Source of the DNA: Patescibacteria group bacterium | GTDB taxonomy: Bacteria > Patescibacteriota > Minisyncoccia > Phycocordibacterales > Zambryskibacteraceae | DNA: 64,000 nt | Assembly (NCBI GenBank): GCA_004322205.1 | Contig: SCSN01000008.1 | Location: forward strand, 18,370 to 82,369 | Direction: 5' to 3' | In this document: one piece after another, positions 6,530 to 44,284 of the stretch | Layout of the letters: every line of letters begins with the position of its first letter | Position numbering within the stretch: position 1 is the stretch's first letter | Program-made: the position numbers and the translations under genes | The notes under the pieces: generated by a model | The model's input: the letters and a program-made list of their open reading frames with translations, nothing else | Databases searched by the model: none | What the model was told of the DNA's origin: nothing

Positions 6530-6595
6530 GAATAAGATAGTATTTAGAGCATCAGTTTCACACCCACCACACCCACGTTGTGGGAAGGAGAATTT

Positions 6596-6922
6596 ATGAG
6601 TAGCGAAGCGGTTTCTGTGCCCGCACCGGGGCGCAATGAGCTCTTCGAGACCATCGAGGTCTTGGAAAGGGCCGTCCGCCACTCCGAGATTTCCATGGTG
6701 GAGCTCTCGGAGCGTCTCAGGGACTGTGTGGCGGAGGCCTATCGCCGCCACGACCGAGCGTGCTGGACAAAGAAGTTCGCCGAGCGCCGCTTCTGGGAGC
6801 GGCGAGCGATCCGTCTAGCGACCGTCACGCGAGATGAGATCAGGTCGCAGGTCCGGCAAGCCCTCGATGCTCGTCGACGTAAGAAAACGAAGGAAGGCCG
6901 CAGCGTTCAGGCCACAGCCTGA
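6596..6922 (+). CDS. hypothetical protein (GC-rich ORFan with canonical SD)
   Basis: Start placed at the ATG at 6596, preceded by AAGGAG 7 nt upstream. GC content is visibly higher than flanking genes. I see no recognisable domain. Confidence 0.5.
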   Translation: MSSEAVSVPAPGRNELFETIEVLERAVRHSEISMVELSERLRDCVAEAYRRHDRACWTKKFAERRFWERRAIRLATVTRDEIRSQVRQALDARRRKKTKEGRSVQATA

Positions 6923-18136: not shown

Positions 18137-19035
18137 ATGCTCTTACTGACAAACAGATCAAGGACCTGGAGGTCAAGGCTAATGCCATTCGCCTCTCCAT
18201 TATTGAAATGCTTCTTGAGGCACGCTCCGGTCATAGCGCCGGTCCTCTTGGCATGGCGGATATTTTCACCTATCTCTATTTTGTCGCACTCAAGCACGAT
18301 CCAAAAAATCCTGATTGGCCCGAGCGCGACCGGCTTGTGCTCTCTAACGGTCACATCTGCCCGGTGCTCTACGCCGCAATGGCGCATACCGGCTATTTTC
18401 CGCTGGAAGAATTAAAGACCTTGCGCAAGCTGGGGACTCGGCTACAAGGTCATCCGCACAGAGAGTATTTGCCCATGCTTGAGACAAGTTCTGGCCCTCT
18501 TGGAGCGGGTCTATCGCAGGCAGTGGGAATGGCAATAGCTGACATTATGGATAATGGCATTGATACTAAACGCACTATCTATGCACTTATGAGTGACGCC
18601 GAACAAGCCGCCGGCAACACTTACGAGGCGGCTTTGCTTGCCGGAAAACTCAAACTCCGCAACCTCATCGCTATTATTGACCGCAATAACATTCAGATTG
18701 ATGGCTTTACCGAGGACGTCATACCCTTAGAACCCCTTGCGGACAAATGGAGGGCGCGCAACTGGCATGTCATTGAAATTGACGGGCATAATTTCGCCGA
18801 TATCCACGAGGCAGTCAATCGGGCCAAGGCCGTGTTTGAAAAGCCGTCAGTAATTATTGCCCACACAATTCCGGGCAAGGGAGTGGGTTATATGGAGCGC
18901 GATTTCAAATGGCACGGCGTCCCGCCGGGAATCCAAGATATGCCCGGCGAGCCGCCCAAAGCGGAGCAAGGCAAAATTGCACTAGATGAGCTGCGTTCTC
19001 TCGGCGGTAGGATAAGCGGATACCATAATGATTAA
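18133..19035 (+). CDS. transketolase, N-terminal (TPP-binding) subunit
   Basis: HSAGPLGMADIF, SNGH and GDG-like TPP-binding blocks. Stop and restart with the C-terminal subunit indicate a split transketolase. Confidence 0.9.
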   Translation: MNALTDKQIKDLEVKANAIRLSIIEMLLEARSGHSAGPLGMADIFTYLYFVALKHDPKNPDWPERDRLVLSNGHICPVLYAAMAHTGYFPLEELKTLRKLGTRLQGHPHREYLPMLETSSGPLGAGLSQAVGMAIADIMDNGIDTKRTIYALMSDAEQAAGNTYEAALLAGKLKLRNLIAIIDRNNIQIDGFTEDVIPLEPLADKWRARNWHVIEIDGHNFADIHEAVNRAKAVFEKPSVIIAHTIPGKGVGYMERDFKWHGVPPGIQDMPGEPPKAEQGKIALDELRSLGGRISGYHND

Positions 19036-24366: not shown

Positions 24367-24984
24367 ATGACCGCCAAGGCCGTGACAACCGCGCAGTTAG
24401 AGCAGATCCGCAAGATGGCGAAGGAGAAGGGCGTCAGCCGCGACCAGTTCCAGCTGGGGCTCGACAACGGAATGTTCGCACGCACCCTCGACGAGCTCAT
24501 CGTCGGCAAGGTGACGGAAACACCAACGGGCCTCTTCCGCCTCGCCGTGGACTGGGGTCGGACGACCGAGGAGATGGTCCGGGCGTGCCAGTACGACTGT
24601 GCCAACCCGGATATCACCGAGGAACACTTCCCCCGGCCGCGCACGAGCGGCGTCGTGAAGGGCGACTACAAGCTCTTTCACTTCAACCGCAATATCTCAT
24701 CGGACCAGGCTGTCCGCGAGATACGCGCCGAGGGCTTCGAGCTTACCGGAGCGCACGAGATCCTCGTCTTCAGGGAGAAGTTCCCCGAGGAGCAGCGGAA
24801 GTTCACCATCGTTGGCCTCGGCGATCCCCTCTGGCGGCGGGACCGGTACGGCTACCGGCACGTGGTTGTGCTCCGCAGGCACGAGGCGCGCCGCTCCGCT
24901 GACCTGACCCTCTGGGAGGTCGTCTGGCCTCCGCTCTACCGCTTCCTCGCCCGTCGCCTGCCTGCCGGACAGGCAGGCAAGTAG
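24367..24984 (+). CDS. hypothetical protein (GC-rich ORFan with canonical SD)
   Basis: 205 aa, AAGGAG 5 nt upstream, very GC-rich by eye, followed by its own terminator. I see no recognisable domain. Confidence 0.5.
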   Translation: MTAKAVTTAQLEQIRKMAKEKGVSRDQFQLGLDNGMFARTLDELIVGKVTETPTGLFRLAVDWGRTTEEMVRACQYDCANPDITEEHFPRPRTSGVVKGDYKLFHFNRNISSDQAVREIRAEGFELTGAHEILVFREKFPEEQRKFTIVGLGDPLWRRDRYGYRHVVVLRRHEARRSADLTLWEVVWPPLYRFLARRLPAGQAGK

Positions 24985-25877: not shown

Positions 25878-25886
25878 TGGTATAAT
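25878..25886 (+). promoter_or_regulatory. extended -10 (TGGTATAAT)
   Basis: TGnTATAAT 15 nt upstream of the ATG at 25901. Confidence 0.4.
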
Positions 25887-25900
25887 TGAAAGCACGCCGT

Positions 25901-27304
25901 ATGACCAATACTCGCCAACGCGCCGTGGTGAAACTTGCGCCTTTGTTTCTGTTCATTCTCTCTCTTCTCTTTCTGCCGTTTGTTTCTTCTGCCCAGACCC
26001 TGACAGAGCAGCGGATTGCCGACCAAGAAACGAAACTCCGCGCCGAATACGACGCTCTCCAGAAAGAAATCGAGAAGTGGCAGGGGATTCTCACTGAAAC
26101 ACAGAAAAAGGCAAGCACCTTGCAAGGTGATATTTCCTTTTTGAACGCCAAAATCAAGGAGGCGGAGCTTACCATCAAAGCAAAAAACATTGCCATCGGG
26201 CAACTGGCTAAGGAAATCGGAGTCAAGACCAAAAAAATTGGTGAACTTGAGGGGAAGCTCGCGCGGGGCAGGCAGTCCCTCGCTGAACTCATCCGCAAGA
26301 CCAATGAACTCGATTCATATTCGCTGCCCGAAGCAATTCTTACGAATAAAGATCTTTCCGAGTTCTTTAAAGATTTTGATTCATATTTGTCGATTAAGAG
26401 TGCTCTGCAAGAGCATTTTGCTGAAGTTCGGCAAGTTAAAAAACAGACCGAAGCGGAACGGGAGCAACTTGACGTCAAAAAAAATCAGGAGACTGACGCC
26501 AAGTATGTAGTGGAGAGCCGCAAGAAAGTCATCGGTCAAAGCCAGAAAGAAAAAACGCAGCTGCTTACCGTAACAAAGCAAGAAGAAAAAACCTATCAGA
26601 CGGTTTTGGCTGAACGACAGAAGCGGGCGGCGCAAATCCGAGCGGCGCTCTTCCGTCTTCGCGACACTGAAGGCATTCCTTTCGGCAAAGCTCTCGAGTA
26701 TGCAGGCCTTGCTTCCTCAAAAACAGGTGTTCGGCCGGCTCTTATTCTCGCCATTCTTTCGCAGGAGTCCGACTTAGGAAAAAACCAGGGCTCCTGCATT
26801 CTCTCAAGTCTTACGACTGGCGATGGAGTAGGGAAGAATACGGGCACATTTTTTGAAAAAGTTATGAAAGCGCCGCGCGACACGGAGCCGTTTGAGAACA
26901 TTACCAAACAGCTGGGGAGGGAATGGACCTTGACGCCAGTTTCTTGTCCGCCCGGGACGACATATTCCACGAGCCGCGGCTACGGCGGCGGCATGGGCCC
27001 CTCGCAGTTCATCCCCTCCACCTGGGAGCTCTTCAAGGAGCGCATTGGGAGTATTATCGGACTCGGTGCTGACAGCCTTGATCCTTGGAATCCGGAGCAT
27101 TCGTTCGTGGCGACGGCAATTTATCTCTCTGATTTGGGGGCGGCTGGCGACGGGTATTCGGCGGAGCGCAATGCGGCCTGCAAATATTATTCCGGCGCCT
27201 CTTGCCGAGCGGGGCGCAAGCCACCCAATGTTTTTTACGGCGATTCAGTGATGCAGAAAGCGGAGGAGATACAAAGTAATATCGACTTTTTGAAGGGGGT
27301 TTAA
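25901..27304 (+). CDS. secreted coiled-coil protein with C-terminal lytic transglycosylase (MltB-like) domain
   Basis: Signal peptide, long heptad-rich region, then LAILSQESDLG (catalytic Glu) and GGGMGPSQFIPSTW, which is characteristic of MltB-family transglycosylases. Confidence 0.6.
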   Translation: MTNTRQRAVVKLAPLFLFILSLLFLPFVSSAQTLTEQRIADQETKLRAEYDALQKEIEKWQGILTETQKKASTLQGDISFLNAKIKEAELTIKAKNIAIGQLAKEIGVKTKKIGELEGKLARGRQSLAELIRKTNELDSYSLPEAILTNKDLSEFFKDFDSYLSIKSALQEHFAEVRQVKKQTEAEREQLDVKKNQETDAKYVVESRKKVIGQSQKEKTQLLTVTKQEEKTYQTVLAERQKRAAQIRAALFRLRDTEGIPFGKALEYAGLASSKTGVRPALILAILSQESDLGKNQGSCILSSLTTGDGVGKNTGTFFEKVMKAPRDTEPFENITKQLGREWTLTPVSCPPGTTYSTSRGYGGGMGPSQFIPSTWELFKERIGSIIGLGADSLDPWNPEHSFVATAIYLSDLGAAGDGYSAERNAACKYYSGASCRAGRKPPNVFYGDSVMQKAEEIQSNIDFLKGV

Positions 27305-27337
27305 AAGAGCTTCTTAGCTAGTTAGCTTATTAGAAAC

Positions 27338-27379
27338 TGCACACCAAAAAATGGCTCAAAAGAGCCATTTTTTGGTGTG
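27338..27379. terminator. bidirectional intrinsic terminator (19-bp perfect arms)
   Basis: GCACACCAAAAAATGGCTC-AAAA-GAGCCATTTTTTGGTGTGC. Confidence 0.7.
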
Positions 27380-27403
27380 CAGGCAAAGAAAATGCAAAAA
27401 TTA

Positions 27404-27431
27404 TTGACAGAAAACACTGATATGCTATAAT
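27404..27431 (+). promoter_or_regulatory. consensus promoter TTGACA-16-TATAAT
   Basis: TTGACA at 27404-27409 and TATAAT at 27426-27431. No ORF follows, only a GC-rich structured region. Confidence 0.5.
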
Positions 27432-27437
27432 TAGTTG

Positions 27438-27795
27438 GAGATCAGTTCGGGGAGGTAAGTAAGCCGCAAGGCCGAAATTCCCCTTCGAGCGTAAGTCCTT
27501 AGGTTGCTCTATTCGTCGGAGCGCCGGGCAGCAAGGTGGGGTCCTCTCTTCTAACGGTGCGTTTGTGTAGGAGATGGTAAGTTATCGGCCTGACGCGGCA
27601 GCCGGTTCGGCGCCCGCGCCCAGTGCGTCCAGCCTAACAAAGAGGGCGGGACGGATGAACGGAGCCCCCGCGGGGCACATCCTCTGGAGTGTATCGTTCC
27701 ACTCCCCGGTAACTAGCCAAGTCTAGACTCTCCCACGCAAACGTGCTGGGGCCTCGTCGCAGTCGTAGTTGACCGCGGCGGGGCCTCTTTGTTTT
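27438..27795 (+). ncRNA. candidate structured ncRNA of about 360 nt (GC-rich; identity unresolved)
   Basis: Sits between a consensus promoter and a GC hairpin plus T-tract (GGGGCCTC...CTTTGTTTTTATT). Contains many GNRA-closed hairpins such as GCC-GCAA-GGC. No credible ORF in any frame. Confidence 0.35.
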
Positions 27796-27873
27796 TATTA
27801 TATTCTGTATTGTGCTTTACTGTCACTGTACTAGAGTACTAGAAATTTAATATCTTAATATCCCAGCAGTAGT

Positions 27874-27901
27874 CTTAGTATATCATATATGATGCATTAA
27901 G
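27874..27901. repeat. palindrome family member 1 (CTTAGTATATCATATATGATGCATTAAG, imperfect)
   Basis: Shares the ATCATATATGAT core with the copies at 28518 and 32649. Confidence 0.5.
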
Positions 27902-28069
27902 AAACTCGCAAGAAACTGGCTGTTAGGCGAGTTTTTAGCTTTTGGTTCCAAATTGAAACTATTGAAACTACTGCCTCTTGCTTCCATGACTTATGTTTTC
28001 GCCGCGTCTCCGCTTTTTACACCTTCTCCTTGACAGGCGTCTTTGGGTTGCTATGGTTGGACTAGAGGC

Positions 28070-28416
28070 TCTTGTGCGCCGTGTGAGCAGAAGGGTCAGT
28101 GACTGCGGACGGAGAACTTCAGCGCGTCTCTCCTGGGCACCGGCGCACACAAAAAGACTGGGCAACAGCAGTCTAAGAGCTCATAACCCCGATGGTTGTG
28201 GTGTTCTCGCACCCGTTGTCCAGCCACAATCGTGCTTGTGTCTCGCACACTTTCTTGGGCGAAAGACAATGCGACTCTTGCTTCGGCGAGGGGGGAATGT
28301 AGGTATGGACGGAGCAGTTCCAGCCCAGCGTGGCGCTCGCCACGCACTCCAGGCTTACAAAACCAGCACAGGCATGGACCCCCACGCACGCCACCGTGGG
28401 GGTCTGTCTTTTTCTG
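28070..28416 (+). ncRNA. second candidate GC-rich non-coding transcript (about 350 nt)
   Basis: Weak promoter (TTGACA-16-TATGGT at 28030-28063) and a strong terminator (GACCCCCACG...CGTGGGGGTC plus TGTCTTTTTCTG, 28378-28416). The only ORFs are Arg/Ser-rich overlapping pairs on both strands, typical of non-coding GC-rich DNA. Confidence 0.25.
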
Positions 28417-28517
28417 TCGGGGTGCAGGGCTTTCGGCAAGGTTTGAACGTAAAGATCGAAGCGCGAAAATTTCGCGGGAAACACAGAAAAAGCAAGAAAC
28501 CATGAAACTCTCCTTTC

Positions 28518-28543
28518 TTAGTCTATCATATATGATAGACTAA
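28518..28543. repeat. palindrome family member 2 (TTAGTCTATCATATATGATAGACTAA, perfect 26 bp)
   Basis: Perfect palindrome about 100 nt upstream of rpmE. Confidence 0.55.
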
Positions 28544-28650
28544 GCGTGCAAAAGACAAGAAAGTTTAAGAAAACTGTTGGATTCGCGGCGATAGGTGTAG
28601 GTCAAGTGCCACCCTTGCTTTTTATTTTAAGATTGTTATATTCAGCTCGC

Positions 28651-28869
28651 ATGAAAAAAGACATCCATCCTCAATATTTTGATAAGGCAAATGTCGTCTG
28701 CGCCTGCGGCAATACTTTTACCATTGGCTCGACAAAAGAACGAATCGAGGTGGAAATCTGCAGCGCCTGCCACCCCTTTTACACCGGCACCGAGAAAATC
28801 ATTGACTCCGCCGGACGAGTTGAGAAATTCAAATCCAGGCGCGCCAAAGCGGCAAAGAGCAAGAAATAA
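28651..28869 (+). CDS. rpmE: ribosomal protein L31
   Basis: MKKDIHPQY...CACG...[10 protein letters not shown] zinc-ribbon L31 pattern. Start trimmed to the ATG at 28651, 8 nt after an extended -10 (TGTTATATT). Confidence 0.9.
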
Positions 28870-31877: not shown

Positions 31878-31905
31878 TTGATTTTTATTTGCCCAGAGCT
31901 ATAAT
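31878..31905 (+). promoter_or_regulatory. promoter TTGATT-16-TATAAT
   Basis: Immediately downstream of the tRNA. Drives a GC-rich non-coding stretch. Confidence 0.4.
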
Positions 31906-31911
31906 GTTAAA

Positions 31912-32128
31912 TGCAACGGTAATCGGAGAGATGCGACTATCTTCGGGAGTCTATAGCTGTTGCTTCTACGGGGGCGCCGGGCATCGCCTTATAAAGCTGC
32001 CTAATTCTCATAATCAGTGAAGGGTGGAGCCTGATCGTAGCCATCCGGAGAGAGAAGAGCGATCACCCACGATCGTCGCAATCGGTGGGCCGGGCGCTGG
32101 GTCTTGATGACCAGCGCCCTACTCTTTT
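31912..32128 (+). ncRNA. candidate small structured RNA of about 215 nt (identity unresolved)
   Basis: GC-rich, no ORF, and ends in the hairpin GGGCGCTGG...CCAGCGCCC plus TACTCTTTTGTT (32091-32130). Confidence 0.25.
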
Positions 32129-32232
32129 GTTATAATTTGCCGAGTAGAAAAAGAGTCTGTACAGAAGAAGATTTCTGAAATTAAAACCGCTTCCAAGATT
32201 TGACTTTCGGGCAAGAAACAGAGGTAAAACCC

Positions 32233-32580: not shown

Positions 32581-32648
32581 TAAAGATACTCCACGATTAG
32601 ACTTTCGGACAGAGCACCCACTTTTTGACTAACAAAAACGCTAAGTCT

Positions 32649-32672
32649 TAATGTATCATATATGATACATTA
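32649..32672. repeat. palindrome family member 3 (TAATGTATCATATATGATACATTA, perfect 24 bp)
   Basis: Between the RNHCP gene and the GH1 gene. Confidence 0.55.
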
Positions 32673-32726
32673 GGGAGTGTTATGTCAGCGACACGGAGTG
32701 TTATAATTTGCTGATATAATTGGGTT

Positions 32727-43741: not shown

Positions 43742-44284
43742 CTACGCGCGCGGGACGGCCAGACAGCAGCGCTGGCTGAAGGCGCCCACGAGCCAGCTCC
43801 AGTCGAGCTCCGGCGCCTCGCCGTAGCAGTGGAGCACAGGCACGCGGCGGTGGCCGAGCTCGTCCACCAGGACCGTCCCGGCGAACACCAGGATGCGGCC
43901 CTTCGCCTCCTTAGGTAGGAGCTCGGGGTGATCCCAGTGGAAGAGTGCGTCCCGATAGCCGAGACGGAGCCCCTTCTTCGCGCGGACAAGCATCTCCTCC
44001 CAGCGGATCCATTCTTCATCACTGCCGGTGAAGAACTCGGCAAGCGCGATTCCGCCGCCGTGGAAAGGAGCATCCTCCACGACTTCCCGGACCCAGTCCG
44101 GAAAACGAACAGCGACGACCATCTTCGCAAACTTCGCGAAGAGGCTCCTAGACTCGGGTCGGGAGAGGCGGTGGATATCCTCGTCAGATCCGCCCTCCTC
44201 CCGGATCGTCGCGACTAGTGTCTCGATGATACTCGTCGCGACGCCCATGCCGCTGACGACAGCGGCAACGTCTTTCTTAGACAT
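43742..44284 (-). CDS. hypothetical protein (GC-rich ORFan with canonical SD)
   Basis: 180 aa, AGGAGAAGAG RBS and its own terminator. The overlapping 43651-44130 frame is Arg/Ser-rich and looks like an off-frame artefact. Confidence 0.5.
   Translation of the reverse strand: MSKKDVAAVVSGMGVATSIIETLVATIREEGGSDEDIHRLSRPESRSLFAKFAKMVVAVRFPDWVREVVEDAPFHGGGIALAEFFTGSDEEWIRWEEMLVRAKKGLRLGYRDALFHWDHPELLPKEAKGRILVFAGTVLVDELGHRRVPVLHCYGEAPELDWSWLVGAFSQRCCLAVPRA

Follow-up and report, generated by a model that had tools for sequence, protein, structure and literature searches.

A candidate lineage-specific structured RNA gene upstream of rpmE in a patescibacterial genome

What would a tiny, tightly packed patescibacterial genome do with 1.3 kb of non-coding DNA that carries two strongly promoted units? 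Such a stretch is unlikely to be idle, and it is present in the DNA analysed here, a window of 64,000 nucleotides (positions 18,370 to 82,369 of contig SCSN01000008.1, assembly GCA_004322205.1) from a member of the Zambryskibacteraceae in the Patescibacteria (Candidate Phyla Radiation, CPR). The non-coding gap is 1347 nt long and separates slt, which encodes a transglycosylase-like protein, from rpmE, the gene of ribosomal protein L31; it holds two plus-strand units of similar build, hereafter u1 and, downstream of it, u2. Our favoured answer for u2, to which we give about half of our belief, is an independently transcribed, lineage-specific structured RNA located in a hotspot for fast-turnover RNA genes upstream of rpmE. 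Its transcription would start at a sigma-70-type promoter of its own and stop at an intrinsic terminator of its own, the gene sitting between that of u1 and a separately promoted, presumably almost leaderless rpmE. Once folded, the RNA would most likely be a stable molecule acting in trans, as a scaffold that binds proteins or as a regulatory RNA, and would be neither a leader of rpmE, nor a messenger, nor a housekeeping RNA. It would be specific to its lineage, the same gap holding in many Paceibacteria one or two such RNA genes whose sequences turn over fast. The transcription, RNA ends, folding and function of u2 are all predicted from sequence.

Expression signals and predicted fold of u2

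The putative sigma-70-type promoter lies on the plus strand at 28030-28057 and reads TTGACA-16-TATGGT. The first-pass annotation had given these hexamers and this spacing, which stand, and had called the promoter weak, a label that does not fit, since the site scores 10/12 in a consensus scan and has a TG before its -10 hexamer. The same architecture is seen at other strong promoters of the window, for example those of groES and u1. With its 5' end placed about 7 nt past the -10 hexamer and its 3' end at the T-run of the terminator, the predicted transcript spans 28064-28413 on the plus strand, that is about 350 nt with a guanine plus cytosine (GC) content of about 0.59. The intrinsic terminator (28377-28413, plus strand) consists of a perfect 10-bp G+C-rich stem, in which GACCCCCACG (28377-28386) pairs with CGTGGGGGTC (28395-28404) across an 8-nt loop (inverted repeat I14), and of a U-tract encoded by a T-run at about 28408-28413; the predicted pair probability of the stem is 1.0. 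GC content ranges from 0.53 to 0.65 across u2, and from 0.57 to 0.65 inside it, as compared with 0.29 to 0.44 in the spacers on either side, and the only open reading frames (ORFs) over u2 are mutually overlapping and Arg-rich, on both strands. The terminator and the GC-rich non-coding body of about 350 nt under such frames had both been read correctly in the first pass. The same applies to a small palindrome downstream of the terminator, CGCGAAAATTTCGCG at 28462-28476, which occurs only once in the window and carries little weight, since loose matches to it are frequent in shuffled sequences.

The sequence of u2 is real and not the product of a mis-assembly, since two independent Logan assemblies from other runs (SRR8426596 and SRR8426592) reproduce the region with a single nucleotide polymorphism (SNP) as the sole difference.

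In fold prediction, the plus strand of u2 gives z-scores of -4.0 and -4.46, against -0.99 and -1.3 for the minus strand. For comparison, the mean z of 80 windows of 360 nt drawn at random from the contig is -0.68 and 11% of them reach -3 or below, so that the z-score of the minimum free energy (MFE) is, taken alone, just moderately unusual. In the models, the sharp definition of the ensemble and the difference between the strands are stronger signals than the MFE score. Ensemble diversity is 15.5 on the plus strand versus 84±24 for 60 dinucleotide shuffles, of which none is as low (0/60), and 41.6 on the minus strand. Furthermore, the centroid structure coincides with the MFE structure, and the helices of the fold have pair probabilities of 0.91-1.0 (MFE and partition function).

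Three domains are predicted on the plus strand. Domain 1 (28073-28149) would be a long irregular hairpin closed by UGUGCGCCG/CGGCGCACA, with helix probabilities of 0.98-1.0, and domain 2 (28158-28223) a hairpin closed by CUGGGCAAC/GUUGUCCAG (0.98-0.99). Domain 3 (28231-28376; 0.92-1.0) is predicted to be multi-branched: an 11-bp helix would close it, and its three inner arms would include UUCG- and GCUC-capped hairpins. The SNP of the second assembly, a U to C change at 28375, turns the predicted G.U pair 28232/28375 into a G-C pair, which agrees with the modelled fold as a piece of anecdotal evidence. With a promoter and a terminator of its own and an exceptional strand-specific fold, as predicted here, u2 has the general features of an independent structured non-coding RNA (ncRNA).

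We then come to the identity of such an RNA. The first-pass annotation had suggested a structural RNA such as RNase P RNA, transfer-messenger RNA (tmRNA) or 6S RNA. The general part of this suggestion fits, given the signals of u2, its strand-specific fold and its homologue-free ORFs, while the three named families do not. The Rfam search that had been proposed found no family: with the 4227 families of Rfam 15, the whole window yields two transfer RNAs (tRNAs) only at the gathering score, the 1.5 kb at 27200-28700 nothing relevant at E<=10, and the 363 nt of u2 alone, at E<=10, just two chance microRNA or small RNA (sRNA) hairpin matches on the minus strand, it being our estimate that matches below roughly 15-25 bits would go unlisted. 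A tmRNA has as hallmarks a tRNA-like domain (an acceptor stem and a T-arm, ending in CCA) and a reading frame for a tag peptide. It was rejected for u2: ARAGORN finds only two tRNAs in the window, Rfam gives no tmRNA, and no T-arm-like GGUUCGA is visible. 6S RNA, an RNA of about 150-200 nt shaped as a single rod, long and irregular, that opens into a large bubble at its centre, was rejected as well, u2 being about 350 nt long with three predicted domains, one of them multi-branched, that do not form a rod, and without a 6S match in Rfam. The RNA of the signal recognition particle (SRP), whose marks are a helix 8 that bears a GNAR tetraloop and conserved internal loops of the AGCA/GGAA type, was discarded in both its 4.5S and its large form, since no SRP family matches at E<=10 and the predicted three-domain fold is unlike it. 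A distinct unit of the window can be mentioned here: right after a tRNA-Thr gene, 31879-32135 holds a TTGATT-16-TATAAT promoter and a terminator with a GC-rich body of about 220 nt between them. This unit would fold as a single long irregular rod of 6S-like shape, with a z-score of only -1.7, and has no Rfam match at the gathering score.

The slt-rpmE gap among relatives

Homologues of u2 were sought in a comparison set of 166 loci around slt homologues, taken from GTDB genomes, JGI metagenomes and Logan contigs. The comparison with related genomes that had been called for in the first pass, run here as blastn and nhmmer of u2 against these 166 loci, returned nothing beyond the same organism. 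A shuffle-controlled Smith-Waterman comparison of u2 with all units detected no similarity, u1 included, and a covariance model of domain 3 run over 1.1 Mb of related loci found only itself; a single 21-bit match of this model in one locus (L141) is a partial match to generic hairpins and was rejected. Likewise, nothing was found by blastn of u1 and u2 against phages and plasmids or by two exact-word scans of IMG/VR with both units, and a search for antisense targets of u2 within the window gave only chance 10-12-mers. In the collections searched, u2 is an orphan. The slt protein (472 aa; gene at 25886-27304) is a coiled-coil protein with a transglycosylase-like (SLT_2) domain, identical to NCBI EPN83_01540, and its relatives are labelled Zambryskibacteria or Paceibacteria. 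Among 5.8 billion sequences its closest match has only 74-76% identity, which indicates that closer relatives of the source organism are absent from the collections. An exact look-up of the L31 protein and of one spurious ORF over u2 retrieved the same population only and no closer strains.

The position of u2 is less singular than its sequence. The relatives keep the order L25, slt, gap, L31, prfA, with gap sizes from 13 nt to more than 3 kb. A consensus promoter other than that of rpmE, defined as TTGAC(A/T/G)-16/17-TAnnnT with the rpmE promoter left out, is present in 43 of the 114 distinct slt-rpmE gaps of Paceibacteria. The bodies that follow it exceed the GC content of their locus in 42 of these 43 cases (mean +0.089), and 20 sampled bodies have a mean plus-strand fold z of -4.6, versus -0.68 for random contig windows. 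The units are 110-600 nt long with terminators at their ends, often ...GGCCUUUUCC, and tandem pairs such as u1 and u2 also occur in two other loci (L082 and L120). At E<1e-6, 48 units fall into about 30 sequence clusters, mostly singletons. None of the sub-families has an Rfam match; searches of related loci (34 at the gathering score and 7 at E<=10) gave tRNAs and chance hairpin matches only. Tentatively, and with more doubt than confidence, these data would fit an undescribed hotspot in the gap upstream of L31 for one or two strongly promoted, G+C-rich and compactly folded RNA genes of 110-600 nt, in which the expression signals are kept and the bodies diversify or get replaced, most lineages thus carrying an unrelated RNA.

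The neighbour of u2 belongs to one such family. u1 (27404-27795, plus strand) opens with a promoter that matches the consensus perfectly (TTGACA-16-TATAAT, 27404-27431), continues as a GC-rich body of about 360 nt and closes with a terminator whose end is near 27795. Members of its family, of about 300-520 nt and without an Rfam match, are found in the gaps of L001 (5554-6080), L023 (5457-5898), L016, L032, L052 and L094. They share a UCCCGG...ACAGGGAG hairpin and a CUCGUCGUCG hairpin, and most have a 3' module, UCUUUC-GUAGC-UUCG-GCUAC-CCACUCAnnUGAGUG, of which u1 is without the last two hairpins. The 3' hairpins of the family show compensatory pairs, with no broken pair in hairpin 1.

Other groups of units were noted on the way. 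L031 (5474), L045 (5620), L123 (4229), L132 (4607) and the gap of L080 have in common a hairpin whose loop is AAAUGGA, with ACAGAG ahead of it and GyUAG behind it, and its stem covaries (GAGGA/UCCUC, GAGAG/CUCUC, AAGGG/CCCUU). A leader peptide in relatives was considered and rejected, since the AUGGA motif is the loop of this covarying hairpin and no ORF is conserved. A third group (L024 5633, L045 5717, L120 4551 and L144 2542) combines a GGCUAGGUGUAUU hairpin carrying GGCUA(A/G)GUGUAUU with two short covarying hairpins and a terminator, and an AAGGAGG-like purine tract lies near the 5' end of many units. In L001 (5321-5440) and L082 (4175-4300), though not in the window, the stop codon of slt is immediately followed by a conserved element some 110 nt long (cccgccccaaccc ... 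ggggttggg). In a subset of genomes, a G+C-rich palindromic element, GCCCCTCCCCT-N6-AGGGGAGGGGC, and its variants occur several times per locus upstream of L25 and slt (for example L019 3048, L036 2474-3236, L051 739-3975, L116 1366-2147 and L129 1545-2233) and resemble repetitive extragenic palindromic elements.

Competing explanations for u2

Several observations weigh against reading u2 as a structured RNA gene. As no homologue was found in any collection searched, purifying selection and covariation are without support for u2, and its orphan status fits a young non-functional transcript too. The MFE z-score places u2 only within about the top 5-10% of contig windows. A weak 3-base GC periodicity (p=0.02), concentrated at 28179-28388, is a possible trace of former coding. 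Moreover, the GC-rich protein genes of the window share the cassette of promoter, GC-rich body and terminator, and a decayed cassette of this kind would resemble u2.

The main rival thus states that u2 is a non-functional remnant, either a decayed GC-rich accessory gene or a fragment acquired from a genome of higher GC content, which has kept a promoter-like site and a terminator and of which any transcript would be devoid of function. We regard this as unlikely, albeit a serious competitor, which is retained in that rank on account of the weak periodicity. Beyond the points just listed, it draws on the variability of the slt-rpmE gap, which takes up protein genes in relatives, and on three orphan protein genes of the window that are built as the same cassette. 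The latter, at 24367-24984 (plus strand), 43742-44284 (minus strand) and 6578-6922 (plus strand), have a GC content of 0.62-0.65 compared with about 0.50 for the genome, and two of them a GC content at third codon positions (GC3) of 0.80-0.87. All three lack a Pfam match and end in a terminator, a consensus promoter precedes at least two of them, and a long 5' leader is present in the first two; they look foreign or fast-evolving.

A gene origin was also the alternative offered by the first-pass annotation, with a protein similarity in BLASTX as its expected mark. Searches of this type, with the ORFs and with six-frame translations, lend it no support, and a small residual doubt stems from the periodicity. 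The 170-aa Arg-rich ORF of the plus strand, which spans u2 and runs through its terminator, matches only itself among 1.84 billion representative proteins, and large protein searches with the 135-aa and 103-aa ORFs of the minus strand gave matches to themselves or none. Six-frame searches of u2 in Pfam, NCBIfam and PDB found nothing credible, a ThiF match at E=0.077 being confirmed by neither PDB nor NCBIfam, and tblastn and tblastx of u2 against the window's own GC-rich genes detected no similarity. In the only open frame the third position has the lowest GC content of the codon, the opposite of what nearby GC-rich genes show. The plus-strand frame that would fit the periodicity contains 4 stops and the minus-strand frame is without homologue. 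Furthermore, u2 has an intact promoter and terminator and has kept its sharp GC boundaries, and a strand-specific fold far better defined than in shuffles is unexpected for a decaying coding sequence. Patescibacterial genomes are compact, and 600 nt of junk would be expected to be lost from them. As a separate observation, spurious ORFs over u2, at 27993-28505 (plus strand) and 28096-28503 (minus strand), have already entered public collections as predicted proteins (P0121, and P0123 from Logan).

A second explanation concerns the origin of u2 rather than its nature and is compatible with a structured RNA. The first-pass annotation had pointed to palindrome copies on either side of u2, and these were indeed recovered as two of the three copies that a 28-bp palindrome has in the window, when shuffled sequences yield none. 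The first copy (27874-27901; CTTAGTATATC ATATAT GATGCATTAAG) lies 130 nt upstream of the -35 hexamer of u2. The second (28517-28544; CTTAGTCTATC ATATAT GATAGACTAAG) is perfect and lies between the terminator of u2 and the promoter of rpmE. The third (32647-32674; CTTAATGTATC ATATAT GATACATTAGG) stands just upstream of the promoter region of an operon for a glycoside hydrolase family 1 (GH1) glycosidase, an EamA transporter and a glycosidase. All have an 11-6-11 layout with an ATATAT centre and arms of two types, the second copy being A/A', the third B/B' and the first a hybrid A/B'.

On this basis, u2 might be the cargo of a small module, about 640 bp in length, with a 28-bp site of Xer/dif-type layout at each end, inserted between the terminator of u1 and the promoter of rpmE. 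Two 11-nt arms around ATATAT have the layout of a tyrosine-recombinase core site, a recombinant site would be expected to have hybrid arms like those of the first copy, none of the relatives has u2, and what follows the terminator of u1 looks like the rpmE promoter in a collapsed copy (repeat families D2 and D15). Against this, the flanks of the three palindromes share no homology, and no recombinase was found among ten ORFs of about 290-350 aa (the size of Xer) scanned with Pfam, the rest of the window being unscanned. Alignment for a duplication of a palindrome-plus-promoter segment was unconvincing outside the palindrome, and this idea was dropped. Perfect 28-bp palindromes with ATATAT or GTATAC centres also occur at three loci of relatives, beside a gene for a TrpR-like protein (about 145 aa, with a Pfam score near the cutoff) upstream of fba (L046 1190-1705, L065 10-486 and L040 750-1207); they read TTAACCTTACAGTATACTGTAAGGTTAA in L046, where two copies flank the gene, and TTAACTATACGATATATCGTATAGTTAA in L065. 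By their location, the copies of the relatives are likely operators, analogous in layout to those of the window. Operators for a transcription factor are favoured for the palindromes because these analogous copies adjoin the TrpR-like gene, and the window copies are probably protein-binding sites and not parts of an RNA. We consider a recombination module quite improbable.

In a third explanation, u2 would regulate the downstream operon in cis, as a long leader or attenuator with a regulated terminator. The operon rpmE-prfA-rpsB-tsf (rpmE at 28651-28869, followed by prfA and rpsB) lies on the same strand, u2 is upstream of it and ends in a terminator, and autoregulatory leaders are frequent in ribosomal-protein operons. 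This arrangement is nevertheless very hard to reconcile with the promoter of rpmE itself (28615-28643, plus strand; TTGCTT, 17 nt, TATATT), which is located 7 nt before the ATG at 28651 and would give a nearly leaderless messenger. The relatives are alike: a promoter TTGCAA-N17-TATAGT/TATATT stands 7-9 nt before the ATG in nearly all 114 gaps, those with an RNA unit and those without one alike, and gaps of 24-60 nt without a unit keep the same arrangement. Since rpmE has this conserved promoter of its own, the upstream units are independent genes and not leaders. Moreover, 234 nt separate the end of the u2 terminator from the rpmE ATG and contain a palindromic site of the protein-binding type; the units of relatives are mutually non-homologous, when homology would be expected of leaders that bind a conserved protein; and Rfam searches revealed no riboswitch or leader family. 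A leader is thus very improbable. Some relatives do have elements after the rpmE promoter, namely, in L001, L102 and L112, some 70 nt of conserved 5' leader ahead of the ATG, and a conserved long hairpin leader (ATGAATCCCGTTAGAAGTTC ... GAACTTCTAACGGG), forming the last 70 nt or so, in L020, L022, L042, L108, L110 and L120, where rpmE is not leaderless.

The last explanation, a strongly diverged RNase P RNA, was examined by hand because many CPR RNase P RNAs fall below Rfam thresholds; indeed, for 10 of 35 circular CPR genomes the RF00010 threshold had to be lowered to about 5 bits, and many of these RNAs are without several helices (Lui et al. 2021, PMC8172020). u2 has a fitting size and host group, and by eye AAAAGACUGGGC, GGGCGAAAG and CCAGGCUUAC appear in the order of the conserved regions CR-I, CR-II and CR-V after a long hairpin that might be P3, with AAG[A]CUGG able to pair with CCAG[G]CUU in a P4-like manner. 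Against it, RF00010 and RF00011 give no match in any of the three Rfam searches, and the best ordered match to the E. coli CR-I (GAGGAAAGUCCGGGC) and CR-V (ACAGAAnCCGGCUUA) consensus, 18/29, equals that of shuffles (p=0.36), when E. coli itself scores 29/29. u2 would have an A in place of the bulged U that is universally conserved in P4, and ACGCAC in place of ACAGAA; it cannot be threaded consistently, since the putative P1 and the base of the putative P3 overlap and the 3' strand of P2 is absent; and the CR-II-like motif lies outside the would-be specificity domain of the predicted fold. An essential, universal RNA should furthermore be recognisable in relatives, and its core motifs are absent from all the hotspot RNAs; a GAGGAAAGUCC match in L074 is the antisense strand of a protein gene and not RNase P. 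RNase P RNA is hardly credible for u2 and the least probable of the explanations considered.

Significance and comparison with known systems

If u2 and the units of its relatives are real RNAs, they would be large structured RNAs outside every current family library, of a kind that annotation pipelines skip or cover with spurious Arg-rich ORFs. The locus would then be a natural system to follow the birth and replacement of structured RNA genes between conserved neighbours. Should the hotspot be genuine, symbionts with minimal genomes would possess large structured RNAs of several new classes, on which selection would be diversifying or lineage-specific, with a possible link to defence or to interaction with the host. 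Taken alone, u2 is a prediction, and its value is that of a well-characterised candidate, not of a discovery.

Among known systems, the RNase P RNAs of CPR bacteria are of the same size class and host group as u2, but the P4 core motifs of u2 are at chance level, and it has neither a weak Rfam match nor a consistent threading (PMC8172020). Closer in kind are the candidate ncRNAs of the GC-IGR and DIMPL studies, which are GC-rich intergenic stretches with a promoter and a terminator of their own, a strong predicted fold and no coding potential (PMC6429828, PMC8632094, PMC11109978). Those motifs were accepted on covariation over many representatives, whereas u2 is a single representative and matches 0 of the 4227 Rfam 15 families.

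Within the gap itself, u1 and its relatives are like u2 in location, strand, promoter architecture, length (about 360 nt), GC content, terminator style and lack of an Rfam match. They differ in that u1 has relatives with common motifs and compensatory pairs, while u2 resembles no other unit and its domain 3 model finds nothing else.

The lineage-specific sRNA genes of enterobacteria occupy conserved intergenic positions and evolve fast. They share with the hotspot units the conserved flanking genes, the style of promoter and terminator and the rapid turnover of the body. They are short and seed-based, however, whereas the hotspot RNAs would be G+C-rich and compactly folded molecules of 110-600 nt.

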